The notes: generated from the sequence alone by a model not told the origin. A DNA stretch of 59,085 nucleotides from a bacterium (GCA_021815205.1 JAKAHD010000005.1:1-59085), one strand, 5' to 3'; counted from the first letter of the stretch, positions 9,450 to 52,054 are shown. Program-made: numbers and translations.

Positions 9450-9497
9450 CTTCTTATTTTACCCCCTTAGAAATGAAATTTCTAACGGGGCAATCTC

Positions 9498-12364: not shown

Positions 12365-13474
12365 TTATATCCCCATGTTTCCCTGCGCGGTGATGCGCCG
12401 GTTCTTTTTGCGGAGGATGCTTATATATCCGGCGACGGCGATCATCACGGCGTTATCGGTATTGAAATCCATCGGTGGCGCGAAGAACTGCGCGCCCAGC
12501 TCATGACTTACCACCGACAGCTTATGACGAAGCTCCTTGTTTGCGGCGACGCCGCCCGAGAGGAGGATGGATCTCGCTTTGTATTCTTTCGCGGCGCGCA
12601 CAGTTTTTTTCACTAAAACATCCAATGCCGCCTCCTGGAAGCTTGCTGCCACGTTAGCAGCAAGCACTGATTTTCGCTGATCCTTAGCTGATTGCCGCTG
12701 ATAATTTTTGTCGCGGAGGTAGTACAGCACTGACGTTTTAAGGCCGGAGTAGCTGAAGTCGTAGTTTTTATCGTGGAGCATAGGACGGGGAAACTCGATT
12801 GCGTGCGGATTGCCTTTCGCGCCGAGCTTTTGGATCTCGGGTCCGCCGGGATAGGGGAGGCCGAGCATTTTTGCAACCTTATCGAATGCCTCCCCGACCG
12901 CATCGTCCCGCGTCTCGCCGAGTTTCTTCCATTTTGTGAGCGAATCAACTTTAAGGAGAATGGTGTGCCCGCCCGACACGATAAGGGCGATAGCGGGGAA
13001 AAGAGTTTTTAGTGTATAGTTTTTAGTTGTTAGTTTTTTGGAAAGGAGAAAACTGTATAAATGACCCCCTAAGTGATTTGTCCCTATGAGTTTGAGTTTT
13101 TTGTTCTGAGTTTTTAATTGTTGGTAAAGCTCTTTTGCAAATTCGATACCCGTCCAGAGTGCGGGTTCGAGGCCGGGGCCCACGGTGACGCATACTGCGT
13201 CCAATTTTAAATTTTTGATTTTTAATTTTAAATCAATGTCTGAATTCTTCAATTTTAAATTACTAAAAACTTTTTCTAGGACAACCGGAAGATTCTTCAG
13301 GTGCTCGCGCTTTGCGAGGTTCGGTACGACTCCTCCGAAAGGACGGTGTATCGGAATCTGCGAAGCGATCACACTCTTCAGGATATTGAATTGAGGTGCG
13401 CGAAGGCCACCCGACGCCTCGAGCAACGCTAATGCTGTCTCATCACAGCTCGTTTCTATAGCTAGAATTTTCAT
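12365..13474 (-). CDS. tsaD: tRNA N6-adenosine threonylcarbamoyltransferase
   Basis: MKILAIETSCDETALALL, VTVGPGLEPALWTG, SGGHT and LSGGVAANKELR. The ORF track starts at 13501, but that extension crosses a repeat hairpin. Confidence 0.9.
   Translation of the reverse strand: MKILAIETSCDETALALLEASGGLRAPQFNILKSVIASQIPIHRPFGGVVPNLAKREHLKNLPVVLEKVFSNLKLKNSDIDLKLKIKNLKLDAVCVTVGPGLEPALWTGIEFAKELYQQLKTQNKKLKLIGTNHLGGHLYSFLLSKKLTTKNYTLKTLFPAIALIVSGGHTILLKVDSLTKWKKLGETRDDAVGEAFDKVAKMLGLPYPGGPEIQKLGAKGNPHAIEFPRPMLHDKNYDFSYSGLKTSVLYYLRDKNYQRQSAKDQRKSVLAANVAASFQEAALDVLVKKTVRAAKEYKARSILLSGGVAANKELRHKLSVVSHELGAQFFAPPMDFNTDNAVMIAVAGYISILRKKNRRITAQGNMGI
13203..13230 (-). repeat. In-frame AT-rich 7-nt-period array in tsaD
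   Basis: AATTTTA AATTTTT GATTTTT AATTTTA. Part of a ~22-aa insert, SNLKLKNSDIDLKLKIKNLKLD. A further array lies at 13017-13037. Confidence 0.8.
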
Positions 13475-13493
13475 ATTTCTATTGCGGTTCTTG

Positions 13494-13525
13494 CCCCACA
13501 CTAAACCGAAAGTTTTAGTGTGGGG
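13494..13525. repeat. CCCCACAC hairpin (core module of the nested repeat family)
   Basis: CCCCACACTAAA-CCGAAAGT-TTTAGTGTGGGG. Confidence 0.8.
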
Positions 13526-13727
13526 TCATCACAACTTGTTTCAATGGCAAGAATACGCATGATGGAAGTGTAAAGTTTAAAAATCAAAATGTAAAACAGT
13601 TAAAAATGAAAAAATTTTCATTTTGCATTGCAATTTTGCACTTTAATTTTTGCACTTTGAATTAATAAAGAATAATCATGGTTGCTGGATATTGAGTATC
13701 ATATACTATATACTAGATACTAATTCC

Positions 13728-16324: not shown

Positions 16325-18226
16325 ATGACGCTTGAAGATATCGAAAAAAGAATAGCGGCGTTCAAGAAAGAGCGGTCGCCGAGAAGATCGAGAAAGAGAA
16401 GAGAGCACAATGAAACATTCCCGGTATTCCGCGGAAGGGAAGCGGCGCCGGAGGCGGACTATACTCCCATTATGCCGAGACGCGAGAAAAAGAATAATGA
16501 CGATTCGCCCCGGTGGCTCCGGCGAACGCTCCTTATCGGCACAAGCATCGGGCTTATCGTGATCGCATTGGGTGCGCTCTTTATCTTTACATACCTGAGC
16601 GAACCGCGCGGCGTGAGCGTTGACATCTACGCACCGAAGGATGTAACACGCGGCACGCCGTTCGAGGTTTCAGTGAACGTGACGAATAATGCCAATATGC
16701 CCCTCCAGAACGGGAGTATCACACTGAACCTTCCGGACGGGCTTGTTGCGTTGCATGCCTCCGATCCGAGTATCGTAAGCGAGAAGCTCGGCGGCGTGAA
16801 AAATGGGAGTCTTACGAAACGGACCTATACGCTTGTGCCGGTGGGGTCCGTGGGAGCGAGCAAGAGAATCACCGTCGTCTTCGCCTATGAAGTGGGCGCT
16901 GGATCGCGATTTGAGACCGACGCGAACCAAGATGTGACGGTGCATGATGCAGCAATCCGGATTACGGCGAAAACGCCGAACCAAGTTCTCGCCGGATCGA
17001 CATTTTCCTTCAACCTCTCGTATGCGAACGTCTCCGATTCCGATATTCAAAACGCATCACTCGAAGTCGACTACCCGAACGGCTTCAAGTTCGACTCCGC
17101 GTCGGTTGAGCCGTCCTCGTTCACGAATTACTGGAGCTTGGGAACGCTTGCCGCGCACTCGACGAGCACGATCACGATCACAGGGCGTTTCAGCGGCGCC
17201 TCACAATCGGGAATTTCGATTCCGGTCAAGGTTTCGACGACTATCGATGGGAAGGGCTACACAATTGCGGACGACACCGTGCAGATCACGCCTTCACCCT
17301 CACCCTTAGGACTCACAATCTTAATCAATGGACAGGAAGGGTATGTGGCGCGTATCGGCGACACGCTTCAGTACGCAGTGCGTTACCAAAATCTCAGCGG
17401 CATTGCGCTCTCGGATCTCACAATTCGTGTCATGCTTACGGGTGAGCTTCTCAACTTCTCGTCGCTCCATACGAACGGCGTGTACTCACCTTCGTCGCAG
17501 ACGATCACATGGTCTTCGGCGAACATGCCCGCGCTCGCGCTTGTCGGACCCGGGGGATCGGGCGAGGTTACTATTACCATCGGCCTAAAGAACCAGTTCA
17601 ATCTTCAGCGGTTGAACGACAAGAACTACTACGTGCGCTCGAACGTGCAGGCGAGTTCGCCTTCGGTGCCGTACTACCTCTCTTCGTCAAAGACGTCCGC
17701 GGAGGTGATCACCGACACGAAGGTCTCGGGCGCGATCTCGGTCGCGGCGCGCGCGTATTATCGCGACGCCTTGAGCCAGATCGCGAATGCGGGAAATCTT
17801 CCTCCCAAAGTGGGCCAGCCGACGCAGTTTACGATACACTGGCTCCTCTCGGATTATGCAAACGATACGAATACTATCAAAGTGAGCGCTCCACTCCCCG
17901 CAGGCGTGAGGTGGACGGGCGTCGTGAAATCGAACGGTGACACAAGCCCGCAGTACGACGCATCCTCAAACTCGGTCGTGTGGAGCATCTCGAAGATGAC
18001 GGCGAATCGCGGCGTGTTGACCGGCCCACTTGAGGCGGTCTTCCAGATTGAGGCGATGCCCGACGCGAGCGAAGCCGGCTCGTACGAGACGATTCTCGAA
18101 AAAACCCAAGTAACCGCGACTGACAGTTTTACGGGAGCAACGCTCACCAGTTCGGCGGATCCCCTCACAACCGCCCTGCCCTTGGACGACACGGTAAGTC
18201 CGGCACAGGGAATAGTAGTTCAGTAG
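16325..18226 (+). CDS. Membrane-anchored surface protein with repeated beta-rich domains
   Basis: One N-terminal TM (LLIGTSIGLIVIALGALFIF), then about 550 aa rich in T/S/V/N with recurring patterns such as ...ITITG..., ...VTITIGL... No catalytic motif. Confidence 0.6.
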   Translation: MTLEDIEKRIAAFKKERSPRRSRKRREHNETFPVFRGREAAPEADYTPIMPRREKKNNDDSPRWLRRTLLIGTSIGLIVIALGALFIFTYLSEPRGVSVDIYAPKDVTRGTPFEVSVNVTNNANMPLQNGSITLNLPDGLVALHASDPSIVSEKLGGVKNGSLTKRTYTLVPVGSVGASKRITVVFAYEVGAGSRFETDANQDVTVHDAAIRITAKTPNQVLAGSTFSFNLSYANVSDSDIQNASLEVDYPNGFKFDSASVEPSSFTNYWSLGTLAAHSTSTITITGRFSGASQSGISIPVKVSTTIDGKGYTIADDTVQITPSPSPLGLTILINGQEGYVARIGDTLQYAVRYQNLSGIALSDLTIRVMLTGELLNFSSLHTNGVYSPSSQTITWSSANMPALALVGPGGSGEVTITIGLKNQFNLQRLNDKNYYVRSNVQASSPSVPYYLSSSKTSAEVITDTKVSGAISVAARAYYRDALSQIANAGNLPPKVGQPTQFTIHWLLSDYANDTNTIKVSAPLPAGVRWTGVVKSNGDTSPQYDASSNSVVWSISKMTANRGVLTGPLEAVFQIEAMPDASEAGSYETILEKTQVTATDSFTGATLTSSADPLTTALPLDDTVSPAQGIVVQ

Positions 18227-18277
18227 AAGCAGACCACGCCACAAGAAACGCAGAAGAACGCAGAAACGCGGTCTGCG

Positions 18278-18446
18278 TATACCCCTCACATAAGTATTTA
18301 TACCATGAGAAGCTCACATGGGGGTAGGAAACCCCGCGTTCGCCACGGGATGAGGCATTCACCCCCCACGAAATGAGTGTGGGGGTTCATCCCCGTGGCA
18401 CGCCACGAGGTTTCCTGCTTCTCACGGGATTTATGTGAGGGGTATA
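18278..18446. repeat. Nested palindromic repeat (CCCGTGAGAAGC family), inverted orientation, with an extra outer arm
   Basis: The core 18303-18430 aligns to the reverse complement of 12128-12258, with substitutions. The outer arms are TATACCCCTCACATAA / TTATGTGAGGGGTATA. Confidence 0.85.
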
Positions 18447-18541
18447 TCTGCGTGCATTTCAGCGCCCGCCCGACCGAATGACGGTCATTCGGGCAGGTTA
18501 TCTGCTTCTATTTCTATAAAAAATACGCTATTCTAAATCTC

Positions 18542-33989: not shown

Positions 33990-36776
33990 ATGCAGAAGTA
34001 CAATTTTTCGGCTATAGAAAAGAAATGGCAGAGGATGTGGAAGAAGAAGAAAATCTACGAGCCTGATCTCAAAAAAGCAAAGAAACCGTTCTACAATCTC
34101 ATGATGTTTCCGTACCCTTCGGCCGAGGGGCTCCATGTGGGGAATATGTACGCCTTCACAGGAAGCGATATCTACGGCCGGTTCAAACGTATGCAGGGGT
34201 ACGACGTCTTCGAGCCGATTGGTCTCGACGGGTTTGGCATCCATTCTGAGAACTACGCCTTAAAGCTCGGCGCGCACCCATTGGCGCAATCGAAAGTTTC
34301 CGAGAAGCGATTCTATAAACAACTTGAGATGGTGGGGAACGGGTTTGCGTGGAATGAGCGGCTTGAGACCTATGATCCCGGATACTACAAATGGACGCAG
34401 TGGCTCTTCGTACAAATGTGGAAACACGGGCTCGCCTACCGCAAAAAGCAGGCGGTGAACTGGTGCCCGAGTTGCAAAACCGTGCTTGCGGACGAGCAGG
34501 TCATCACAAAATCAAAAATCAAAAATCAAAGTTCAAAATTACAAAACGGAACACGCGAAGAGATGATAAGCGTCTGCGAACGGTGCGAGACGACGGTTAT
34601 AAAAAAAGAGCTCGAGCAGTGGTTTTTCAGGATCACGAAGTATGCGGAGCGGCTGCTTGAGAATCTGGAGAAAATCGACTGGTCCGAGAAGGTGAAAATT
34701 GCGCAAAGGAACTGGATCGGTCGGAGTATCGGAGCGGAAATCGAGTTTCCGCTCCGATACTCCGCGCAGAATGACGCGGAATTGACGCGGAAGAACGCGG
34801 AAATCAATCGGTTGGTGGGTCAGCGTAATTCAGCGTCCAGTCAGCGAGATTCCGCGACTTTGACATCAGTCAAAGTATTCACCACAAGGCCCGACACCCT
34901 GTTCGGGGCGACATATCTTGTGCTCGCGCCGGAACATGCCGCAATTTCAAATTTCAAATTTCAAATTTCAAATTACGACGAAGTTGAGAAATATATCGCG
35001 ACCGCGAAGAAGAAATCGGACGAAGAGCGAATAGAGAACAAAGAAAAGACCGGCGTTGAACTCAAGGGAGTGAAAGCGGTAAACCCCGCGAATAAGGAGG
35101 AGCTCCCGATCTTCGTCGCGGACTATGTGCTCTCGGGATACGGCACGGGCGCGATTATGGCGGTACCCAGCCATGATTCAAGAGATTTTGATTTTGCCAG
35201 GAAATTCAAATTACCCATACGTGAGGTGGTGATTCCGGATGCGTCAAATTCCAAATTCCAAATTCCAAATGTCCAAATAAATCCCAATAACCAAAATTCA
35301 AAAACAGCAGAGTTCTACGAGGGTGATGGAGTTTTAATAAACTCCGGAAAGTTTGACGGAATGGATTCGGAGAAGGCGAAGTGGGAGATCACGAAATTCG
35401 TGGGGGGAAAGCGCACGACACAATTTCGCCTCCGCGACTGGCTCATTTCCCGCCAGCGCTATTGGGGTCCGCCGATACCCATCATATACTGCCGTACATG
35501 CTGGGAATTATCAATTTCCAATTTCCAATTTCCAAATAATTCCGACCAATCAAACGAACGAGAAAGAAAACTTGAATACGGGGTGCACTACACGGTACTT
35601 GATGGGAAGGAATACATGATCCACCCTGTTCCTGAAGAGGACTTGCCAGTCATACTTCCAATGGTTGATGATTTTCGCCCGCAAGGGAAGGGCGAATCGC
35701 CGCTTGCGTCGGTCAGGGAATTCTATGAAACAAAGTGCCCTGTGTGCGGCGGCGCGGCACGCCGCGAAACCGATGTTTCCGACACCTTCCTCGACTCCGC
35801 ATGGTACTATATCGGTTTTCTCGCGAAAACCTCCAATTTTAAATTTGAAATTTTAAATTTGAAATTCAGGGACATCGCAGAGCGATGGCTCCCTGTTAGC
35901 ATGTACATCGGCGGCGCCGAGCACTCGGTGCTCCATCTCCTCTATGTCCGCTTTATTGCACTCGCGCTCCGTGATATGCAGCTCCTCGATTTCCCCTCCG
36001 CAACCGGTGAGCCCTTTCCGAAGTTCCGCGCGCACGGACTCCTGATCAAGGATGGCATGAAGATGTCGAAATCGAAGGGGAATGTGGTGAACCCCGACGA
36101 ATACATCAAGAAGTTCGGTGCGGACGCCTTCCGTATGTACCTCATGTTCCTCGCGCCTTTCGAACAAGGCGGCGATTTCCGCGAGCAGGGAATCTTAGGC
36201 ATCGAACGGTTCCTCACGCGTGTGCGGAAACTCGTCGAGGCGTCGCTCGACAAGAAAAAGCCGATGCGTCCCGAATCGAAATCAGCCGCACCGCATAAGA
36301 CACCCGACAACTTCAAAAGCGCCATTCACCGGACCATAAAGAAGGTGACGGAGGATATTGAAACCCTTCATTACAACACGGCGGTGAGCGCGCTTATGAT
36401 TCTTTTGAATGAAGCGGAAGCGCAGGCAGAGACGATTCATCTGCCGCGGTACTTCTATGAGGTCTTCTTGAAACTCCTCGCGCCCTTCGCGCCATACCTC
36501 GCGGAGGAGCTTTGGAGTAGAATGGGAGAGAAGAGATCGATTCATCGCGCGGCGTGGCCGACCTATAACCCGAAGATGCTCGTTGCAGAAACCTTCCCGC
36601 TTGTGGTGCAGGTAAGCGGCAAGTACAAGGCGACCGTGGATGCTCCCCGCGATATCGGTGAAGCAGAGGCCCGCGCGCTTGCGCTTCGAAATCCCGCAGT
36701 GGCAAAAGCGATCGGCGAGACGAAGCCAAAAAGGATTATTTTTGTGAAGAACCGCATTATTAACTTCGCGCTCTAG
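33990..36776 (+). CDS. leuS: Leucyl-tRNA synthetase, with at least six low-complexity insertions
   Basis: PYPSAEGLHVGNMYAFTGSDIYGRF (HIGH region), VFTTRPDTLFGATYLVLAPEH, and KMSKSKGN. Confidence 0.95.
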   Translation: MQKYNFSAIEKKWQRMWKKKKIYEPDLKKAKKPFYNLMMFPYPSAEGLHVGNMYAFTGSDIYGRFKRMQGYDVFEPIGLDGFGIHSENYALKLGAHPLAQSKVSEKRFYKQLEMVGNGFAWNERLETYDPGYYKWTQWLFVQMWKHGLAYRKKQAVNWCPSCKTVLADEQVITKSKIKNQSSKLQNGTREEMISVCERCETTVIKKELEQWFFRITKYAERLLENLEKIDWSEKVKIAQRNWIGRSIGAEIEFPLRYSAQNDAELTRKNAEINRLVGQRNSASSQRDSATLTSVKVFTTRPDTLFGATYLVLAPEHAAISNFKFQISNYDEVEKYIATAKKKSDEERIENKEKTGVELKGVKAVNPANKEELPIFVADYVLSGYGTGAIMAVPSHDSRDFDFARKFKLPIREVVIPDASNSKFQIPNVQINPNNQNSKTAEFYEGDGVLINSGKFDGMDSEKAKWEITKFVGGKRTTQFRLRDWLISRQRYWGPPIPIIYCRTCWELSISNFQFPNNSDQSNERERKLEYGVHYTVLDGKEYMIHPVPEEDLPVILPMVDDFRPQGKGESPLASVREFYETKCPVCGGAARRETDVSDTFLDSAWYYIGFLAKTSNFKFEILNLKFRDIAERWLPVSMYIGGAEHSVLHLLYVRFIALALRDMQLLDFPSATGEPFPKFRAHGLLIKDGMKMSKSKGNVVNPDEYIKKFGADAFRMYLMFLAPFEQGGDFREQGILGIERFLTRVRKLVEASLDKKKPMRPESKSAAPHKTPDNFKSAIHRTIKKVTEDIETLHYNTAVSALMILLNEAEAQAETIHLPRYFYEVFLKLLAPFAPYLAEELWSRMGEKRSIHRAAWPTYNPKMLVAETFPLVVQVSGKYKATVDAPRDIGEAEARALALRNPAVAKAIGETKPKRIIFVKNRIINFAL
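34506..34547 (+). repeat. In-frame AT-rich 7-nt array in leuS
   Basis: ACAAAAT CAAAAAT CAAAAAT CAAAGTT CAAAATT ACAAAAC. Encodes KSKIKNQSSKLQN. Confidence 0.9.
34762..34858 (+). repeat. In-frame GC-richer insert (ACGCGGAA / CAGCGAGATTCCGCG family) in leuS
   Basis: GAATGACGCGGAATTGACGCGGAAGAACGCGGAAA...TTCAGCGTCCAGTCAGCGAGATTCCGCG. Encodes NDAELTRKNAEINRLVGQRNSASSQRDSA. Confidence 0.85.
34943..34974 (+). repeat. In-frame AT-rich 7-nt array in leuS
   Basis: (AATTTCA)x4 plus AATT. Encodes ISNFKFQISN. Confidence 0.95.
35246..35303 (+). repeat. In-frame AT-rich 7-nt array in leuS with a degenerate tail
   Basis: (AAATTCC)x3, then AAATGTCCAAATAAATCCCAATAACCAAAATTCAAAAAC. Encodes NSKFQIPNVQINPNNQNSK. 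Confidence 0.9.
35513..35543 (+). repeat. In-frame AT-rich 7-nt array in leuS
   Basis: (AATTTCC)x3, then AAATAATTCC. The tail CCAAATAATTCCGA is also found in the glyQS array at 19562. Confidence 0.9.
35835..35866 (+). repeat. In-frame AT-rich 14-nt (2x7) array in leuS
   Basis: (AATTTTAAATTTGA)x2 plus AATT. Encodes NFKFEILNLKF. Confidence 0.9.
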
Positions 36777-43998: not shown

Positions 43999-44013
43999 TT
44001 TTTAATATAGAGC

Positions 44014-44103
44014 GGTGGGGTGGCCGAGTGGTTTAAGGCGGTAGTCTTGAAAACTGCTGTGCCCGAAAGGGCACCGTGAGTTCGAATCTCACCCCCACCG
44101 CCA
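44014..44103 (+). tRNA. tRNA-Ser (TGA), with encoded CCA
   Basis: Acceptor GGTGGGG/CCCCACC, anticodon loop CTTGAAA, variable arm TGTGCCCGAAAGGGCACC, T-arm GTGAG-TTCGAAT-CTCAC. The last 8 nt belong to IR-C. Confidence 0.9.
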
Positions 44104-45597
44104 AAATTGAAAATCGGAATTGGAAGCCGAGATGGGGTCGCGCCGCAGGCGCGACACAAACGCATTCCCGCCAAAAATTCCCGAATCCAAAAGGTTTTTC
44201 CACGCTCCGCGTGGCTCAAAAAGTACGGTTCGATCCTTAATTTGAAAGTTCGAACCGACTTTTTTGAACAAATGAAGTTTTTCTTCATTTGTTCCCTCGT
44301 TTGCCAATTCCATATTGTATTTCAAAAACTTTTCGGTAAGTTCGAACCGATTATTCGCTTTTTGCTCAAAAGCCGATAATTTCTCTTTGAGAAGCTGTTT
44401 TGAGGCAACCAGCGCACTCTTGGCGTCACGATATTCTTCTAGCGAAAGTGCGCTCTCCAAATACGCATTCATCAGCTTCTCAATTTTGGAATCTAAAAGA
44501 GAAATTTCGGCTTTCGTAGAGTCTGCAAAAAGCGTAGAGGATTGGGCTTCACTCAATATATCTTTTCTATTTTCCGCTAACATCCAAGAAGCCCAATCGT
44601 CTGGCAAAGAAACTTTTTTGATTTCCTTTTGTATTTCGGAAGTGATGATTTCTTCGCGAGTATATTTTTGAGTACAAGGATTTTTCCGTTTGGTACATCG
44701 CAAATAGTTATGACCTTTTTGCGTTTCGGTGGTGATAAAGCAACCGCACTCGCCACAACGGAAAAATCCGCGATACAAAAATGGTTTCAAACCTCGCGAC
44801 TTCGGCTTAGATTTTCTCATCATCACTTCCTGAACGGAATCAAAAAGTTTCTTTGAAATAATCGGTTCGTGCTTGCCCTCAAAAATCTCTCCGTTATACC
44901 GCATTAGACCCGTGTAAATAGGATTTTTGAGAAGTTTTTGATAATTCGACACCGCAAGTTCCTTTCCGCTTTTTCGCTTCAATCCAAGCGCGTTAAATTT
45001 GTCGCGGAGTTCTCGCAAAGTGAAGTTTCCAGTGGAATATGCCTCAAATGTCTTTTTGATAAGAGGCGCGATATTCTCATCAGGCACGATTTGTTTGTTT
45101 TTGTTCACATAGCCAAGGGGCGACATTTGAGGCCATATTCCGTCCTTCACTTTGTTTCTATGTCCGCGCTTGATATTTTCACTTAGGTTGTCCACATAAT
45201 ACTTGGATTGCGAAAAAGCGATTGAAAGCATGAACTTGCCTTGCGGTGTCGGATCAAACCAAAAAGTTGGGAATTTCATTTCTGAAATTACGCCAGTATC
45301 AACGAGGTAGATGATTTTTCCGCCATCTACCGAGTTGCGAGCAAGTCTATCGGGATGCCACGCCAAAATACCAGTGGCTTCGCCTTTTTCCATTCTTTCC
45401 AACATCTCACCAAACACGGGGCGACCTGGTATTTTGGCGGTCTGCTTCTCGACAAAGACATCTATCACTTCCAGTTGTTCTTTCAACGCGAGTTCCTTTA
45501 ACTCCGAAAGTTGGTCAGAAATACTGCGGACTTGCCGGTCTTTGTCGTCCGTAGATTTGCGAGTATAGATGAAAAACTTTTTGGTTTGATTATTCAT
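44089..45597 (-). CDS. Large serine recombinase 2
   Basis: KFFIYTRKSTDD, HPDRLARN, zinc ribbon CGECGC...CTKRKNPC, and a coiled coil. Homologous to recombinase 1. The ATG at 45597 is preferred over the ORF-track start at 45714, which lies in IR-C'. The last ~40 codons lie in IR-C. Confidence 0.9.
   Translation of the reverse strand: MNNQTKKFFIYTRKSTDDKDRQVRSISDQLSELKELALKEQLEVIDVFVEKQTAKIPGRPVFGEMLERMEKGEATGILAWHPDRLARNSVDGGKIIYLVDTGVISEMKFPTFWFDPTPQGKFMLSIAFSQSKYYVDNLSENIKRGHRNKVKDGIWPQMSPLGYVNKNKQIVPDENIAPLIKKTFEAYSTGNFTLRELRDKFNALGLKRKSGKELAVSNYQKLLKNPIYTGLMRYNGEIFEGKHEPIISKKLFDSVQEVMMRKSKPKSRGLKPFLYRGFFRCGECGCFITTETQKGHNYLRCTKRKNPCTQKYTREEIITSEIQKEIKKVSLPDDWASWMLAENRKDILSEAQSSTLFADSTKAEISLLDSKIEKLMNAYLESALSLEEYRDAKSALVASKQLLKEKLSAFEQKANNRFELTEKFLKYNMELANEGTNEEKLHLFKKVGSNFQIKDRTVLFEPRGAWKNLLDSGIFGGNAFVSRLRRDPISASNSDFQFWRWG
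44096..44217. repeat. IR-C (122 bp)
   Basis: Reverse complement of 45617-45738 with 1 mismatch. Contains hairpin GGTCGCGCC-GCA-GGCGCGAC. Confidence 0.95.
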
Positions 45598-45616
45598 AAT
45601 TGTATTGGCAAACGAG

Positions 45617-45738
45617 GAGCCACGCGGAGCGTGGAAAAACCTTTTGGATGCGGGAATTTTTGGCGGGAATGCGTTTGTGTCGCGCCTGCGGCGCGACCCC
45701 ATCTCGGCTTCCAATTCCGATTTTCAATTTTGGCGGTG
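45617..45738. repeat. IR-C' (122 bp)
   Basis: Reverse complement of 44096-44217. Overlaps IR-D by CGGTG. Confidence 0.95.
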
Positions 45739-45946
45739 TGTATTGGACGAAGTTCGAATGTATTTCGGACAAAATCCGCAGGATTTTGACGAATGACACT
45801 TGCGCCTCGGCCGCGCTCGACAAGCTCGCGCGGGGCAAAACCCAAAAATTTCCTATCATTTTTATTAGCGGCTCCCCCCACACCCCCCGCCGCAAAGCGG
45901 AACATTTGAAAGGAAGGAAATTTTTGGGTTTGCCGCCGCCACTTCA
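45734..45946. repeat. IR-D (213 bp)
   Basis: Exact reverse complement of 52348-52560. Confidence 0.95.
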
Positions 45947-45976
45947 ATTTCAACATACTTGTAATATATCACATTA

Positions 45977-46006
45977 TTGTTATACAACACAATAATTTGC
46001 TACAAT
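45977..46006 (+). promoter_or_regulatory. Putative promoter of the element-2 cargo operon
   Basis: TTGTTA, 18 nt, TGcTACAAT (extended -10). Confidence 0.45.
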
Positions 46007-46018
46007 ACATCTGTGAAT

Positions 46019-46225
46019 ATGAAAACCCCAACATCAAGACTTGGCAAAAACATCAAACGCATACGCGAGCAAAAGGAAATGAGCCAAGGCGACATTTGCC
46101 GCGCGGTCGGGCTTGATCGTGCCCAAATGAGCAATATTGAAGCGGGCAAAGGCAATCCCACGCTTGCCACGATCGAAAAAATCGCTCAAGCGTTGGGAGT
46201 AACAAGCGACGAGCTTTTGAAATAG
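46019..46225 (+). CDS. XRE-family helix-turn-helix regulator
   Basis: LGKNIKRIREQKEMSQGDICRAVGLDRAQMSNIEAGKGNPTLATIEKIAQALGV is a canonical HTH_3. Confidence 0.8.
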   Translation: MKTPTSRLGKNIKRIREQKEMSQGDICRAVGLDRAQMSNIEAGKGNPTLATIEKIAQALGVTSDELLK

Positions 46226-46227
46226 TT

Positions 46228-46950
46228 ATGGCAAAACAACAAACAAACAATCAATTTAGAAAAATCAGAGTTTATATCCGTTTTTTCGGATTGCCATTAC
46301 TGCTTGTGATAGTGGCAATTGTTGGTTGGTTTTTTACACCAAATGACCTTAGTAATTTCAAAAGCACATTGGTTGGTACTCTGCTCAGTATCGGAATAAC
46401 ACTTGCCGCCGCCGAGGGTTTCAGAAAACTGGCTGAATACAAACGAGTAAAGAAAACTTTTGGTTTGTTAAAGCTGGTTACCATTCCCTATCTTAAGAAT
46501 CAGTCGGAGAATCTTGAAGCTACAATGAAACAATACAACGACATCTGTTCTATTGAGCAGTCGGTCCTGTTTTTCGCGCAGTGCTCCCAGTTAGACAAAA
46601 TTGCGACAAACTTTGATAAAAGCTGGCTACAACTTATGTATTCGCAAGATTTCCTAGACGCAGTGAATAGCGATGACCATTTTAACAAAATAGCGAATGC
46701 TATTTTCGAAGTTTTGCTTTTTATCAAACAGCTATCTTCACAATCAGCAAATGCTCAAATCAACCTCCATAATGATTTTTCAAAACTAACGAAGGAGCAA
46801 CAAGAGGAATTTATCAATCGTGCCAAACAAATGCGGGACGGATTGAAAGAAAATATTGAGAAGTTGTCAAAATACACGGGAAAATTGGACGAGGAGATAT
46901 TAAAGTCTCTGAATGCGACAGGGACAAATTATTCGGAGTTTGATAGATAA
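46228..46950 (+). CDS. Hypothetical 2-TM membrane protein
   Basis: Two N-terminal TM helices, then a ~160-aa soluble domain with no recognisable motif. Confidence 0.55.
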   Translation: MAKQQTNNQFRKIRVYIRFFGLPLLLVIVAIVGWFFTPNDLSNFKSTLVGTLLSIGITLAAAEGFRKLAEYKRVKKTFGLLKLVTIPYLKNQSENLEATMKQYNDICSIEQSVLFFAQCSQLDKIATNFDKSWLQLMYSQDFLDAVNSDDHFNKIANAIFEVLLFIKQLSSQSANAQINLHNDFSKLTKEQQEEFINRAKQMRDGLKENIEKLSKYTGKLDEEILKSLNATGTNYSEFDR

Positions 46951-46954
46951 TTCT

Positions 46955-48658
46955 ATGACCGAAAAAGATTTACAAAAGAAAGTAGTGGAGCTGGAAGCTC
47001 AAATCAGGAAACTCAAGAAAAGCAATCTCGGGCTGGTTTTTGAGGACAAAACGGAAGACGTTGTTGAGCAATCAAAAGTCAAAGTTCCTGTTTTGAAAGA
47101 AGTCGTCAAAAACCGCCTTGATTTGAGCGAGGAGTATCCGAATAACTTGATGATAGAGGGAGACAATTACCTTGCACTTTCGGTTCTTAACTATACACAC
47201 AAAAAGAGCATTGACCTCATCTACATTGATCCGCCGTACAACACTGGCGCAAAAAATTGGAAGTACAACAATGACTATGTAGATAAGGACGATGAATACC
47301 GACACAGCAAGTGGCTTTCGTTTATGCGTCATCGCCTTAATCTTGCGAAAAACTTGTTGAGAGATGATGGTGTGTTAATTTGCGCGATTGACGACAATGA
47401 ACAGGCACACTTGGGCGTTCTTTTTGAACAAATGTTTCCCGCGTATGATCAATATCCGATTGTAATAATTCACAATCCAGGTGGTACACAGGGAAATAAC
47501 TTTCACTTTACACACGAATACGCAATATTTTTGGTACCAAAGAATAAGACACTGATTGGTCTGCAAGATAGAACTGATAACCCGGATGTGAGACCGTTGC
47601 GCGATGTTTCAACAGGAAATCACTTGCGGGAAGATGCAAAAAACTGTTTTTATCCAATTTTTGTTAAAAACGGAAAGATAATTGGTTTCGGTGATGTAAG
47701 TCCAGACTCTTTCCATCCGAAATCAGCAAATGTGGTACGCAGAGATGGAGTGACTGAGATTTATCCGATAGACCCAAGTGGTAATGAAAGAAAGTGGGTG
47801 TTTGCTCGACAGACGGTGGAGAGTATAAAAGACGAATTGGCGGTGATAGAAAACAGAAGTAGAAAGATCATTGACATTGTTAGAACAAAAACAATGTTTA
47901 ACTATAAGACTGTTTGGACAGACGGCAAGTATAACGCCAATATTTTTGGAACAAAACTTTTGCGCGAGATTTTGCCAAATTGCGATTTTGATTTTCCAAA
48001 GTCACTTTATACAGTTTATGACTGCCTCTTTGCGGTTGTCGGTCAGCGTCCACACGCAAATGTTTTGGACTTTTTCGCTGGGTCTGGCACAACCGGACAC
48101 GCCGTTTTGGAAATGAACAAAATTGACGGCGGCACTCGCAAGTTTATTCTTTGCACAAACAACGAAAACAACAATGGCGGAAACGGCGGGATTGCCGAAT
48201 CGGTTTGCTATCCGCGAATAAAGGCAGTCATTAACGGATACAAGAACAAAAAGAGCAAAAAAGTCGCTGGTATTCCGAGCAATCTTTTTTACTACCAAAC
48301 GGATCTCGTGGACATTGAGCAAATCCACAAGGTACCGGACGAGGCGAAAATACGCATTACTTACCAAGCGGGAGAAATGATCGCCGTCCGAGAGGACGCA
48401 CTCAACGAAGTTGAAAAAAATGACTGGTGGCAGATTTTTGAGGGGAAGGACAAACTCGTGGCGATTTACTTCAAGGAAGACAAAGCAAAACTAGCGGAGC
48501 TCATTGCCAAATTGGAAAAGAAAAATCTGCCGACGGCTTTGTATATTTTCAGTTGGGGCAAGAACGAATACAAAGGCGAATATTCCAGTGTGAATATCAG
48601 AGTCGAGGATATTCCGGAGCCGATTATCGAAGTTTATAAAGAACTCAACCGAGTATAA
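46955..48658 (+). CDS. Type III-like (beta-class) N6/N4 DNA methyltransferase (Mod)
   Basis: DLIYIDPPYNTG (motif IV) precedes LDFFAGSGTTGHAV (motif I). The ATG lies 4 nt after the upstream stop. Confidence 0.85.
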   Translation: MTEKDLQKKVVELEAQIRKLKKSNLGLVFEDKTEDVVEQSKVKVPVLKEVVKNRLDLSEEYPNNLMIEGDNYLALSVLNYTHKKSIDLIYIDPPYNTGAKNWKYNNDYVDKDDEYRHSKWLSFMRHRLNLAKNLLRDDGVLICAIDDNEQAHLGVLFEQMFPAYDQYPIVIIHNPGGTQGNNFHFTHEYAIFLVPKNKTLIGLQDRTDNPDVRPLRDVSTGNHLREDAKNCFYPIFVKNGKIIGFGDVSPDSFHPKSANVVRRDGVTEIYPIDPSGNERKWVFARQTVESIKDELAVIENRSRKIIDIVRTKTMFNYKTVWTDGKYNANIFGTKLLREILPNCDFDFPKSLYTVYDCLFAVVGQRPHANVLDFFAGSGTTGHAVLEMNKIDGGTRKFILCTNNENNNGGNGGIAESVCYPRIKAVINGYKNKKSKKVAGIPSNLFYYQTDLVDIEQIHKVPDEAKIRITYQAGEMIAVREDALNEVEKNDWWQIFEGKDKLVAIYFKEDKAKLAELIAKLEKKNLPTALYIFSWGKNEYKGEYSSVNIRVEDIPEPIIEVYKELNRV

Positions 48659-48662
48659 AACT

Positions 48663-50951
48663 ATGTTTGCGCTAAAACCATTTCAAGAAACAGTAATATC
48701 ACAGCTCAAAGATCAGTTTTTGAGTTTGTGGAAATTGCCAAATCAAAATATCCCGCTCGTTTTCAAATCACCCACCGGAAGCGGTAAGACAATAATGTTG
48801 GCGCAATTTTTGCGCGACATCGTGAGCGACCCGCGTTTTGCGGGCAATGATGTGGCATTTGTATGGTTCTCATTCAGTGAGGATTCCTACGAACAGAGCA
48901 AGAAAAAACTTTTTGACTACTACGGCGGAGCAAGCGAGCTTGATTTGATTGACCTCAATGATCTGTCGCGCGAGAAGCTACGCCAAAACGATGTCTTTTT
49001 CATAAACTGGCAGAAAATCAAAGGCAAAAGTAAAGACAGCCGAAAATTGCGTCGCGAAAATGAGCAGGGTTTGACTTTTGATAATTTCATCAACGAAACG
49101 CACGAAGCGGGACGCAAAATTGTCGTAATTATTGACGAGGAACATATCGGAAGCGACACCGACCTTGCGCTGGAAGTGGTGGAAGGGCTTATCAAGCCGA
49201 AAATCACGCTCCGCGTGTCGGCAACGCCGAAATACATCCCTACCCGCGCCGATACCGCCGGATATGTTGAGGTCAAGCGAAATGAAGTTGTTGAGGCGGG
49301 GTTGATCAAAGAGAAAATCGTTTTCCAAACAGAGGAAGATTTAGAGCAGAAAGCCGTCAAGAAACTTGACCAAGACGAAATGCTTTTGGAGCTTGCCTAT
49401 AATAAACGGCTAGAGTTGATTGAGCTGTACAAAAAGCTCGGCGTTGAAGTCAATCCGCTTGTTTTGATTCAACTCCCGAACGACGATCAAGCGACAAAGG
49501 AAACTGGTGATACGAACAAGCAAACGATTGTGCTTGAGTACCTAAAACGCAAAGGTGTGAAAAGCGACGAGATCGCCGTTTGGCTCTCCAAAGAAAAGGA
49601 AAATCTTGAGGACTTGGAAAAGAGCAACTCGCCGGTTTCATTCCTCTTGTTCAAGCAAGCCGCTGCAACCGGCTGGGATTGTCCGCGCGCGGGTGTTTTG
49701 GTAATGTTCCGCGAAATTAAGAATCCAACTTTTGCGATACAAACAGTCGGGCGCATTTTGCGTATGCCGTTCGGATCGCATTTTGCTCATCCAGAACTTA
49801 ATCTTGGCTATCTTTACACCAACTACAAACGCAACGAGGTTTTGGCGGAGTACGCCAAGTCCAAAACCGAAAATCGTCCCGCAATCAATGGCAGTTATCG
49901 CAAAAAGAATGTTGAGCCACTAAAGCTGGAATCCGTCTTTATGATGCGCGCGGACTATAACGACTTGGGCGATTCTTTCCAAATGACATTCAAGCAAGTA
50001 GCGGACAAAAAACTGGACACCAAGAAACTCAATCTAAAACCGAAAGTGACAAACGGCTTGATTGTCGGCGTGGAAATTGACGACTACGACAATTTCACCA
50101 AAGAGCTGTTTGAGGAGGGTGGAAGTTATGACGAAGAAATGTCCCGCCACGACCTTGAGCGGCTGTATAACTTACTGTGCTTTAAAATTGTCGCCAAGCA
50201 AACCGACGAAAACCGCAAATTCGCGCCGGAGCGTTCTTGGGGCAAACTCAAGACCGCGCTGAACATTTATCTTATGGAGAAACTCAAGATTTCCCGCGCT
50301 GACGCTTACAAAATTATTGTGAATGATTTGGTAAGCGAGGCAGGCGCGCTTGCGCCAGTTATTGGCGATGCGCTTTTGGCTTATCGTCCACTCCGCGAGC
50401 AGGAAGTAAATAAGAAAGCGGCACGCGCAAAGCGCGTAGAGCATATTGAAATACCACGCGAGGCGTTATTTTTCACCGACCAATATGAGGAGCTGAATGT
50501 TAAGAAGGCCGCAATGGAGCCGTTTTGGTTTGAAAAAATCCCTGCTGGATTGTTTGGAGGTACGAACAATGAAAGAAAATTTATTGACTTCCTCGAATCT
50601 CCAAAAAATAAAAGTATCATTTGGTGGCATAAAAACGGCGACACCGGAAGCGAACATTTTTCAATTTCCTTTTACAATCCCGACGAGAACAAGGAAAAAC
50701 TTTTTTATCCCGACTGGATCGTAAAGACGAAAAACGGTGTTTTGATTGTTGATACAAAAGCCGGAATTACTGCCGAAAGCAACGACACGAAATACAAAGC
50801 GGAAGCTCTGCAGGCATGGCTCAAAGGCAGGAAAGGTTTTGACGGCGGCATTGCCGTTCAAGACGGACCAAACGGCTGGAAAATAAATCGCAATGCCAAA
50901 TACTCGCACGATTCATCGCTCAAAGGCTGGGATGTCCTTGATTTGAAATAG
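48663..50951 (+). CDS. Type III restriction enzyme Res-like helicase-nuclease
   Basis: FKSPTGSGKT, VVIIDEEH, RVSATP, and a C-terminal PD-(D/E)xK-like FYPDWIV...IVDTKAG. Confidence 0.8.
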   Translation: MFALKPFQETVISQLKDQFLSLWKLPNQNIPLVFKSPTGSGKTIMLAQFLRDIVSDPRFAGNDVAFVWFSFSEDSYEQSKKKLFDYYGGASELDLIDLNDLSREKLRQNDVFFINWQKIKGKSKDSRKLRRENEQGLTFDNFINETHEAGRKIVVIIDEEHIGSDTDLALEVVEGLIKPKITLRVSATPKYIPTRADTAGYVEVKRNEVVEAGLIKEKIVFQTEEDLEQKAVKKLDQDEMLLELAYNKRLELIELYKKLGVEVNPLVLIQLPNDDQATKETGDTNKQTIVLEYLKRKGVKSDEIAVWLSKEKENLEDLEKSNSPVSFLLFKQAAATGWDCPRAGVLVMFREIKNPTFAIQTVGRILRMPFGSHFAHPELNLGYLYTNYKRNEVLAEYAKSKTENRPAINGSYRKKNVEPLKLESVFMMRADYNDLGDSFQMTFKQVADKKLDTKKLNLKPKVTNGLIVGVEIDDYDNFTKELFEEGGSYDEEMSRHDLERLYNLLCFKIVAKQTDENRKFAPERSWGKLKTALNIYLMEKLKISRADAYKIIVNDLVSEAGALAPVIGDALLAYRPLREQEVNKKAARAKRVEHIEIPREALFFTDQYEELNVKKAAMEPFWFEKIPAGLFGGTNNERKFIDFLESPKNKSIIWWHKNGDTGSEHFSISFYNPDENKEKLFYPDWIVKTKNGVLIVDTKAGITAESNDTKYKAEALQAWLKGRKGFDGGIAVQDGPNGWKINRNAKYSHDSSLKGWDVLDLK

Positions 50952-50953
50952 TT

Positions 50954-52054
50954 ATGAATATTTCTTGGATAAAAAATTTGATAGAGAAAATAAATATTTC
51001 ATTTTCTTCAAAGAAGATAAATTCTCCTTCAGTCAAGATAAAAAATGAGACCGAAAACAGGATTGATAAAGCAATTATTTATCAAGGATTATCATATTCT
51101 GATGCTAAAGATTTAGTTGAATCAGTAATTGACCAGAAGTTAATGGTTTTTAAAAATGAGGCGAAACTTGAATATGAAAATCGAGCCAATGAGTTTGGTA
51201 GCCTTTTAAAAGAAAAGCTATCAGGCCTCCCCGAAGAAGAAATTGCAAAACTAAAAGACCCCGATACTCAACTTGCTTTATTAGAAGCTGCGACAATAAG
51301 TGGTAGAAAGCAAAATAAGGATTTGCGAGGAGTTTTGGCCGATTTAGTAATTCACAGAATTAAAAATGACCAGACAGGAAAAGAGGAATTGAAAAATATA
51401 GTTTACAACGAGGCCATATCAACAATAGGGAAAATAACATCTGATCAGCTGAAAATTATTACCCTATGTTATCTGTTGAGATATGTTTCTTTTTTAAACA
51501 TAAATTCTTGGGAGGCGTTTCAGGACTATTTTTCGAAAAACATTTCACCATTTATTGATTTCAATAATTCTGATTCACAATTTCAACATATTGAATACGC
51601 TGGGTGTGGAAGTATAGGTATAGGTTCATGGAGTTTAGATAAAATCTATCAACTCGAATATGCTTTTTTGTTTCAAAATGACATAACAGAGCAGGAAATC
51701 ACAGAATTAGGGATTGATGATGAGTTAAAAAACAAGTTTATTGGAAAAAAAGAGAGTGGCGGTTTCATAATTCGATTGAGAAACAAACAAGCTCTTGAAA
51801 AGTATCTTGACGATCAAAATACGGAAACAGAAACAAAAAAGAAAATAGTAGATTTATATGAGCGTAAAATAAAATCTACTGGCGATGTAAGAAAGGAGGT
51901 TGAAGAAAAAATTGATATCGGAAAGAAAGTTTTTGAGGTATGGGAAAAGAATTTGAAGCACTTAAATTTGACTTCTGTGGGGATCGCTATCGGAGCTACA
52001 TATTTTGAGCAGATAACTGGAGAAAAGATTGATATAAATATCTGGATAAATTAA
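50954..52054 (+). CDS. Hypothetical 366-aa protein co-transcribed with mod/res
   Basis: Starts 2 nt after the res stop. AT-rich, with no recognisable motif. Confidence 0.55.
   Translation: MNISWIKNLIEKINISFSSKKINSPSVKIKNETENRIDKAIIYQGLSYSDAKDLVESVIDQKLMVFKNEAKLEYENRANEFGSLLKEKLSGLPEEEIAKLKDPDTQLALLEAATISGRKQNKDLRGVLADLVIHRIKNDQTGKEELKNIVYNEAISTIGKITSDQLKIITLCYLLRYVSFLNINSWEAFQDYFSKNISPFIDFNNSDSQFQHIEYAGCGSIGIGSWSLDKIYQLEYAFLFQNDITEQEITELGIDDELKNKFIGKKESGGFIIRLRNKQALEKYLDDQNTETETKKKIVDLYERKIKSTGDVRKEVEEKIDIGKKVFEVWEKNLKHLNLTSVGIAIGATYFEQITGEKIDINIWIN

Follow-up and report, generated by a model that had tools for sequence, protein, structure and literature searches.

Two essential genes in a 59,085-nt stretch of bacterial DNA (GCA_021815205.1, JAKAHD010000005.1:1-59085; hereafter the window), leuS and infB, carry in-frame copies of the same palindromic DNA element. 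We found that this element forms a family of hairpins in the genome and its relatives, occupies protein genes, structured RNA genes, and intergenic places, and stands as an insertion relative to close orthologues. Its arms bracket open reading frames (ORFs) for PDDEXK_3/GxxExxY nucleases, and full and gutted forms occur at the same sites. We hold with good confidence that the leuS and infB segments are ORF-less "solo arms" of a selfish palindromic cassette family, similar to intervening sequences (IVS) and Rickettsia palindromic elements (RPE), and that they are translated as surface loops. The genome measures 735 kb in 12 contigs, with ~50% G+C, and its host was judged to belong to the Parcubacteria/Paceibacterota group of the candidate phyla radiation (CPR) from the names of the nearest LepA homologues alone.

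The leuS gene lies on the plus strand at 33990-36776 and encodes 928 aa with Pfam matches to tRNA-synt_1, tRNA-synt_1_2, and Anticodon_1. The infB gene lies on the minus strand at 57354-58895 and encodes 513 aa with matches to GTP_EFTU, IF-2, and EF-G_D2. The core element occupies 34764-34857 (plus strand) in leuS and 58664-58745 (minus strand) in infB, within the G domain of IF2. In the host frames, the LeuRS insert reads ...SAQNDAELTRKNAEINRLVGQRNSASSQRDSATL... and the IF2 insert reads ...PPRNEADVTRENAEKIQRDSASSQRSSAENN..., as an earlier, sequence-only reading of this DNA had written them. A direct blastn comparison of the two inserts returned a single 16-nt exact word (E 0.02 for the 735-kb genome), so the pairwise likeness is weak. 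Genome-against-genome blastn, in turn, led from both inserts to copies on other contigs, and six copies, the window inserts and the 16S rRNA and RNase P RNA gene copies among them, can be aligned over their full length at a mean column identity of 72% over 94 columns. Two covariance models were built, R1 from these six seed copies and R2, as a leave-out test, from the three RNA-gene copies alone. With filters off, R2 marked exactly two significant places in the window: the leuS copy (64.8 bits, E 5.7e-12; 83.7 bits with R1) and the infB copy (63.1 bits on the plus strand and 56.6 bits on the minus strand, E 1e-11 to 4e-10; 84.3 bits with R1). The next-best R2 match in the 59 kb reached 14.7 bits (E 0.71). 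The short word AACGCGGAAA, with one mismatch allowed, was found 14 times in the window against 11 expected; it is not enriched, and the signal is therefore the whole unit and not the word. The R2 leave-out test (E ~1e-11) thus bears out the proposal of the sequence-only reading that two unrelated essential genes share one nucleotide element in frame, and the relationship goes well beyond low complexity, contrary to what ancestral linkers sharing nothing else would show. Co-orientation of the genic copies with their host genes was considered and dropped, since the R2 score of the infB copy is a little higher on the antisense strand.

The unit is an imperfect palindrome of 82-94 nt that forms one long hairpin. 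The left arm contains four CGC[G/A]GA[A/C] modules spaced by ~11 nt and is followed by a short loop and a right arm with four T[C/T][C/A]GCG modules in mirror order; in the leuS copy, four CGC[G/A]GAA modules, an 18-nt loop, and four T[C/T][C/A]GCG modules are present. Each of the six seed copies folds as a single hairpin of four short G+C-rich helices parted by internal loops. The leuS hairpin, which has G-A mismatches in three modules, folds with -34.5 kcal/mol (z -2.4) and the infB hairpin with -37.2 kcal/mol (z -3.3), and the gatA copy has a z-score of -5.3. The 16S and RNase P copies reach z-scores of -9.1, -9.9, and -7.8 and possess an additional 15-bp outer stem with compensating changes between copies. 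In an alignment of 61 matches, which leans towards structure because the model shaped it and ~31 places are represented by both of their strands, 89.9% of the cells pair, compared with 83.4% in shuffles and 22-44% in slid-partner controls. Changes on both sides occur in 18 of the 26 pairs, compared with 8.9 in shuffles, and none of 500 shuffles reaches either pairing value.

At E<1e-3, R1 marks 21 distinct places in the genome, of which four are in frame in proteins (LeuRS, IF2, GatA, and RecG), three are in structured RNAs (once in helix 6, V1, of 16S rRNA and twice in RNase P RNA), and 14 are outside long ORFs. The family is therefore common to leuS and infB, as the sequence-only reading had it, but is not limited to these two genes. 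The GatA insert reads ...HISRTHADLTRKYAENDERIPRDSANPR..., and in RecG the helicase motifs DEQH and SAT enclose the element; the RecG wedge domain has a possible half copy, ...NHADITRTYAD.... Rfam gave no match at the element places. A loose three-module pattern was found in 63 IMG/VR stretches, and only one of them matches R1 (37.8 bits); it is intergenic on a high-GC contig unlike this genome.

The 16S gene (G000:C1:31457-33588; L001:958-3089) scores 1218 bits against the Rfam SSU model, and its copy of the element is 77% identical to an RNase P copy over 126 nt (E 1e-21). A further R1-type copy stands directly upstream of the gene at C1:31365-31454, 3 nt before it, and two more stand downstream at C1:34651 and C1:34804. 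The gene spans 2132 nt for a 1533-position model, which implies ~600 nt of insertions in the 16S besides the 125-nt hairpin of helix 6. The RNase P RNA gene, which matches the bacterial class A model only weakly, is located on the minus strand at G000:C12:52868-53435 (L002:2868-3435) and shows the GGAGGAAAGUC, ACAGAAUCCCGCUUA, and P18-like motifs. Two palindromic elements, one after the GGAGGAAAGUCGGGAC motif and one in the P15-P17 region, interrupt this gene as long unmatched stretches and explain its weak Rfam score of 31.7 bits. Since the gathering score is 100, standard annotation would miss the gene.

Orthologue alignments support the sequence-only reading in treating the leuS and infB segments as insertions, and the nucleotide relationship between them is a true one. 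IF2 residues 49-86 (58638-58751, minus strand) are extra to the same-genus orthologues G001-G003, which have four residues in place of 38 and read AYEIV-YKEE-KITFIDTPGH between flanks that are 87-88% identical. At the same point, other inserts occur in G005, G009, and G023, and none occurs in three further genomes. The LeuRS linker from the catalytic core to the CP1 editing domain, insert included, measures 42 aa here (34749-34874, plus strand; aa 254-295) and 10 aa in the same-genus G003. G003 and G008 are without an insert at this site, G002 has a short AT-rich insert, G009 has an R1-type insert, and G005 and G022 hold a hydrolase-like domain of ~180 aa. The GatA insert is absent in G002 and G003 and present in G009 and G016. 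Helix 6 of 16S rRNA has 125 nt here and 32 nt in G001; in G003 it is an AT-rich palindrome of 73 nt, in G002 and G009 it reaches 174 and ~429 nt, respectively, and in G016 it holds the same element as in this genome. R1 matches five of the 31 genomes, namely this one, G009, G016, G021, and G022, and has no match in the same-genus G001-G003 (completeness 87-95%); its matches in G009 include the infB, leuS, and gatA sites, as here. Such a patchy distribution requires several gains or several clean losses, and either way the element moves.

The tie to nuclease cassettes lay beyond what the sequence-only reading could see. One blastn match led to LepA (EF4), where a complete PDDEXK_3 domain (PF13366, E 2e-32; TIGR04256 GxxExxY, 121 bits against a cut-off of 35) interrupts the G domain. 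The nuclease is flanked by ...QNDTRNDAES before and ...IPRDSASLPRPSA after, which are left-arm and right-arm modules read in the frame used in leuS, so that arm peptides of NDAE type and DSA type surround the domain. All five PF13366 loci in the genome lie between inverted module arrays, and the arrays differ in type. The LepA locus has CGCAGA and CGCGGA on the left and TCCGCG on the right; the locus at C8:8276-8614 and a broken one at C8:14338-14675 share CGCAGA/TCTGCG and have nearly identical flanks; C8:47510-47848 has CGCTGA/TCAGCG; and C8:19852 has TACGAA/TTCGTA. In relatives, each of the six free-standing nuclease copies examined is spanned by inverted repeats of 13-75 nt that are 330-550 nt apart, and thus 11 of the 11 PDDEXK_3/GxxExxY ORFs examined are bracketed by inverted module arrays.

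Full cassettes are also found at the sites of the short forms. The RecG proteins of G009 and G021 hold a full cassette at the exact site where the RecG of this genome has arms only, the LepA of G009 has a cassette at the same site as here, and a glycosyltransferase of G025 contains one in frame. A public LeuRS (P0073) carries a full PDDEXK_3 cassette at the leuS site and reads ...KNAE[PDDEXK_3]RRNSASSQRESATLTSVKVFTTRPDT, and the LeuRS of the window reads ...KNAE[INRLVG]QRNSASSQRDSATLTSVKVFTTRPDT. The two proteins are identical at 37 of 39 residues at the right junction and 47-49% identical overall; the shared KNAE and the junction match indicate that the leuS insert is that cassette without its ORF. 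No DNA copy of the full leuS cassette was present among the 80 loci kept from a P0073-junction search of genome contigs, and these loci were mostly ordinary LeuRS genes drawn in by the KVFTTRPD word. A second LeuRS (P0110) and four GatB proteins hold the PDDEXK_3 domain as well.

Both its profile matches and its E, D, and ExK residues assign the cassette ORF to the GxxExxY/PDDEXK_3 family (TIGR04256, PF13366). The residues E50, D89, E99, and K101 (E...D...ExK) are invariant in all 14 copies, in-frame copies included, and the domain was modeled confidently, with a predicted local distance difference test score (pLDDT) of 88.9. The nuclease has no PDB relative by sequence and no PADLOC family. 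PF13366 is present in 67 of the 301 genomes of the class, where 23 of the 114 matched stretches lie in open frames of at least 500 aa. Among longer proteins in a large protein collection, 236 of 480 candidates match the domain at E<=1e-10. The best 120 of these 236 comprise 114 with GTP_EFTU (EF4/LepA type), four with GatB domains, and two with LeuRS domains, and their named sources are nearly always of the Parcubacteria group (Paceibacterota, Liptonbacteria, Yanofskybacteria, Sungbacteria, Kaiserbacteria, Moranbacteria, and Taylorbacteria).

We modeled the IF2 G domain with AlphaFold (AF2; 10-sequence alignment, mean pLDDT 64). Residues 54-82 have a pLDDT below 50, and the insert lies between strands 42-49 and 86-92. 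This position suggests that the insert occupies a beta-hairpin turn (beta2-beta3) that comes between switch I and DTPGH, rather than switch I itself, where the sequence-only reading had put it. The LepA insert is located at the homologous turn. In LeuRS, the insert falls between aa 236, the last residue of the catalytic-core match (tRNA-synt_1), and aa 292, the first residue of the editing domain. Other CPR lineages hold further domains at the LeuRS hinge (window 34749-34874): a Nudix-like domain in L154:1501-2223 (a Paceibacterota record) and the ~180-aa domain, alpha/beta-hydrolase-like, of G005, G022, and L158:1501-2295 (a Saccharibacteria record); the loci with foreign domains also include L074 and L070.

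Each coding copy is a multiple of three in length and stop-free in its host frame. Of the three forward frames of the unit, a single one runs without stops; in leuS, both others meet TGA inside the left arm, and at the place where leuS and infB have TCC in the frame they use, the 16S copy has TAA. The single open frame and the exchange of TCC for TAA would fit translation and selection against stops. Pfam detected no Hint or splicing domain in the LepA of this genome, the RecG of G009, the P0073 LeuRS, or the G025 glycosyltransferase, in which PDDEXK_3 and the host domains are the only matches, so the insert probably stays in the mature protein. One DNA run and three RNA runs were mapped to the 16S gene. 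The RNA contigs are overwhelmingly the 16S of other organisms, the mapped "joints" that skip 1025-1151 carry other helix-6 sequences, and the hairpin bin is uncovered in the DNA run X1. The DNA runs X1-X4 contain at least half of the 16S words sampled.

In the full cassette, as we read it, a long hairpin carries a PDDEXK_3/GxxExxY nuclease ORF in its loop, and its two arms are inverted arrays of 6-7 nt modules, CGCGGA...TCCGCG here and CGCAGA/TCTGCG, CGCTGA/TCAGCG, or TACGAA/TTCGTA in the sister types. Cassettes and their gutted derivatives would settle where an extra hairpin or loop is tolerated, such as the helix tips of structured RNAs (16S helix 6 and RNase P RNA), gene ends, and, through the one open frame, protein surface loops. 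The nuclease may drive the spread, either via homing-like break repair at conserved sites or via cutting of the arm hairpin or cruciform DNA, and the short forms may derive from loss of the ORF. In leuS and infB, the element would be transcribed and translated with the host gene rather than removed, adding a hydrophilic, probably disordered loop of ~33 aa to the pre-editing hinge of LeuRS and to the beta2-beta3 turn of the IF2 G domain. Hairpins of coding copies may decay, which would weaken their z-scores; a possible reason is that a perfect stem would be cut by RNase III. The element in both genes is most likely a tolerated passenger. A broader proposal, which we advance tentatively and think somewhat more apt to fail than to hold, is that GxxExxY/PDDEXK_3 proteins are the engines of undescribed mobile cassettes that home into conserved places in essential genes of Parcubacteria, protein-coding and RNA genes alike, have modules co-varying with the nuclease, remain unspliced in the mature product, and decay to short translated hairpins.

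Several points weigh against this account. Same-site occupancy in distant relatives together with absence in congeners fits an old insertion with repeated clean loss equally well as homing. No target-site duplication is evident between the filled and empty infB and 16S sites, whose flanks have diverged, and no mobility event or cleavage site was seen. The unrelated domains at the LeuRS site indicate a generally permissive site, which weakens the claim of targeting. No IF2 with a full cassette is among the best 120 of the 236 matching proteins, and in five genomes with in-frame PF13366 the domain is not in IF2, which is encoded elsewhere. The co-occurrence of element and nuclease is loose, PF13366 being present in four of the five R1-positive genomes (not in G022) and in six of the 26 R1-negative ones, counts in which kin are not independent and R1 covers one module type. 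The PDDEXK_3 fold has generic PD-(D/E)XK matches only, with a Cas4-like protein (SSO0001) as the best match (E 8e-4, TM 0.48) and Hjc at E 0.02, and the PDDEXK_3 entry in a table of PMC3424549 gives the function as "Unknown". In addition, the E-values of R1 and R2 are rough, as the calibration was shortened, and "intergenic" status was judged by ORF lists without a gene caller. Another mobiliser could lie in two weak Y1_Tnp-like ORFs that neighbor each other at G000:C1:6335-6556 and 7081-7302 (31.5 and 29 bits, cut-off 23); their open frames measure 263 and 241 aa, and R1 marks no copy in their vicinity.

The hairpin might alternatively be a recruited RNA signal, a site for RNase III or a hairpin-binding protein, that couples the expression or decay of transcripts of the translation apparatus (16S, RNase P, leuS, infB, lepA, and gatA), with the peptide as a by-product. 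Six of the seven genic hosts do belong to translation, an RNase III gene is present in the genome, and several intergenic copies adjoin upstream stop codons in the manner of terminators or stabilisers (window 18224; ligA, flippase, and tgt). However, congeners live without every copy that was checked, so none is needed for host function, and the coding copies fold far worse than the RNA-gene copies (z-scores of -2.4 and -3.3, compared with -8 to -10), which indicates decay or avoidance rather than maintenance. Homing elements, too, usually reside in essential genes that are conserved, and RecG and a glycosyltransferase are hosts outside translation; we therefore regard a recruited signal as improbable. 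Adaptive protein loops, that is, lineage-specific expansions selected for a new contact of IF2 or LeuRS with an incidental DNA palindrome, would account for the frame being kept free of stops in all in-frame copies and for the differing inserts of other lineages at the same two sites. They would not account for the presence of the unit in non-coding RNA genes and between genes, and the peptide is of low complexity with a pLDDT below 50, wholly different among relatives at one site, and absent in congeners, all of which makes selection for a contact quite improbable.

Excision of the element from RNA, as for an IVS or intron, would keep the insert out of the protein altogether. The architecture is indeed that of rRNA intervening sequences, with a long terminal stem and sometimes an ORF in the loop, RNase III is at hand, and short uncharacterised insertions of less than 200 bp are common in CPR rRNA genes according to passages of PMC11270868. 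Against this stand the lengths in multiples of three and the stop-free frames of the coding copies, in contrast to the stop in that frame of the 16S copy, and the PDDEXK_3 domains of LepA and RecG, which keep their catalytic residues in the host frame. We also know of no bacterial system that religates mRNA after hairpin removal, and we consider excision very improbable. Convergence, by which independent low-complexity linkers would have arisen through slippage of a common CG-rich word, draws on the ~4-fold genome-wide over-representation of CGCGGAA-type words and on the weak pairwise blastn match of the two inserts. It is close to refuted: both inserts match at full length (E ~1e-11) a model that is blind to them, the rest of the 59 kb does no better than E 0.7, the copies agree in their succession of four plus four modules and in where the loop lies, and the strong 16S-RNase P identity falls outside its reach.

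The closest described case to the solo-arm family is the RPE family (Ogata et al. 2000, 2002), to which we liken it by architecture and not by sequence comparison. In the passages of PMC10969869 that treat them, RPE are short palindromes of ~150 bp dispersed in a reduced genome, many of which lie in frame within unrelated housekeeping genes, where they are translated into additional peptide segments that the host fold can accommodate. The element here shares the many dispersed palindromic copies (21 places), the in-frame location in unrelated proteins, and the absence from orthologues. It differs in its shorter unit of 82-94 nt, its internal 11-nt module periodicity, its host in the Parcubacteria/Paceibacterota group, its copies in 16S rRNA and RNase P RNA, and its tie to an ORF-bearing PDDEXK_3 form; those passages give no autonomous partner for RPE.

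Like the IVS of rRNA genes, the element has a long terminal stem on an rRNA helix tip, with or without an ORF in the loop, is patchy in relatives, and belongs to a class regarded as selfish; the extended helix 6 of 16S (125 nt compared with 32 nt in G001, variable among relatives) is what an IVS would produce. A 23S helix-45 IVS with an S23p ORF is described for Coxiella in part of PMC4990558, and in part of their text Tsurumaki et al. [quoted passage not shown] In contrast to IVS, the ORF here is PDDEXK_3/GxxExxY, the 23S_rRNA_IVP genes of this genome having AT-rich arms, and the same unit is in frame in protein genes, which the passages concerned in PMC4990558 and PMC11270868 do not describe for IVS. 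[quoted passage not shown] Terminal inverted repeats, as in MITEs, are present in the whole unit and at the ends of a sister subfamily described below. The bracketed gene, which shares these ends, is a PD-(D/E)XK nuclease and not a known transposase of the Y1/HUH or DDE type, no target-site duplications are evident, and copies lie in frame inside genes. Similarly to inteins and homing endonuclease genes, nuclease inserts occupy conserved sites of essential genes (LepA, RecG, LeuRS, and GatB), recur at the same site in distant lineages, and are missing in close ones; unlike inteins, they have no Hint or splicing domain by Pfam.

The supplementary tables of PMC11270868 aside, we found no account in the literature of this element, of palindromes or cassettes lying in frame in proteins of the CPR, or of what GxxExxY/PF13366 does. 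The known kind is selfish palindromic DNA translated inside genes, and what is new is its previously unreported link to this nuclease family. Low-complexity segments in proteins of ultra-small bacteria would then be, at least partly, copies of selfish hairpin DNA, and one process would explain both the rRNA-gene and the protein insertions of this radiation. The uncharacterised family TIGR04256/PF13366 gains a concrete candidate job, and IF2, LeuRS, GatA, RecG, and LepA each occur naturally with the site filled or empty, pairs that offer a gauge of tolerance for foreign sequence. For annotation and phylogenomics, such inserts inflate marker-gene alignments, push RNase P RNA under the Rfam threshold, and have led public records to name EF4 a "GxxExxY protein".

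Besides the two genic copies, the window contains a composite intergenic palindrome of 287 nt at 18224-18510, built of inverted repeats with the termini TAGAAGCAGA/TCTGCTTCTA. Because these termini match those beside the PDDEXK_3 ORFs at C8:8276-8614 and C8:14338-14675, it is assigned to the CGCAGA/TCTGCG sister subfamily. Its left arm includes 18246-18274, which the sequence-only reading had called a related stretch: R2 does not recognise it (13.2 bits, E 1.5), and the relation holds at the level of the sister subfamily. The first three bases of the palindrome, TAG, are the stop codon of the ORF 16325-18226. Other intergenic copies also start at or overlap an upstream stop codon, namely those of ligA, a flippase-like gene, and tgt, so that the copies located in this way are at window 18224-18226, L015:1501, L020:1501-1510, and L026:1530-1531. 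Such copies may provide stop codons or serve as terminators.

Within LepA (L003:2-1885, minus strand), a second short insert of right-arm type, ...DQRASAQNQRVSA..., is located at residues ~350-365, where the G domain joins domain II. In G009, the LepA (L093) has four tandem repeats of SPQLSAS after the nuclease, and the IF2 of G023 (L035:1501-1995) fills the insert site with four of PSTSSGQA; these repeats hint at further repeat families at hot spots. On contig 8, the interval C8:5000-50600 gathers, among ordinary genes, four PDDEXK_3 loci of the five in the genome, the complete set of four 23S_rRNA_IVP genes, and eight R1 places out of 21. Rfam gave no match to an rRNA gene within C8:3000-17000 and 44000-52000, the two stretches scanned, and the idea that this cluster of nuclease and IVP genes lies inside a 23S rRNA gene was rejected on that result.

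A family of AT-rich in-frame inserts, with AAATTTCAAATTT-type modules, seems to have an ORF-bearing form of its own. In leuS, AT-rich in-frame inserts at window 34940-34975 and in other segments read ISNFKFQISNY, SNSKFQIPNVQINPNNQNSK, SISNFQFPNN, and TSNFKFEILNLKF, and the helix-6 inserts in the 16S of G002 and G003 are built of such modules. The four 23S_rRNA_IVP (PF05635) genes are located at G000:C8:5165-5470, 9479-9790, 13353-13640, and 45535-45810. A parallel mobile system with AT-rich arms may exist for this family. At least three of the four genes are spanned by AT-rich inverted arrays of the AATTTGAAATTT/AAATTAAAAATT type and the fourth is spanned by arms of 11-13 nt only.

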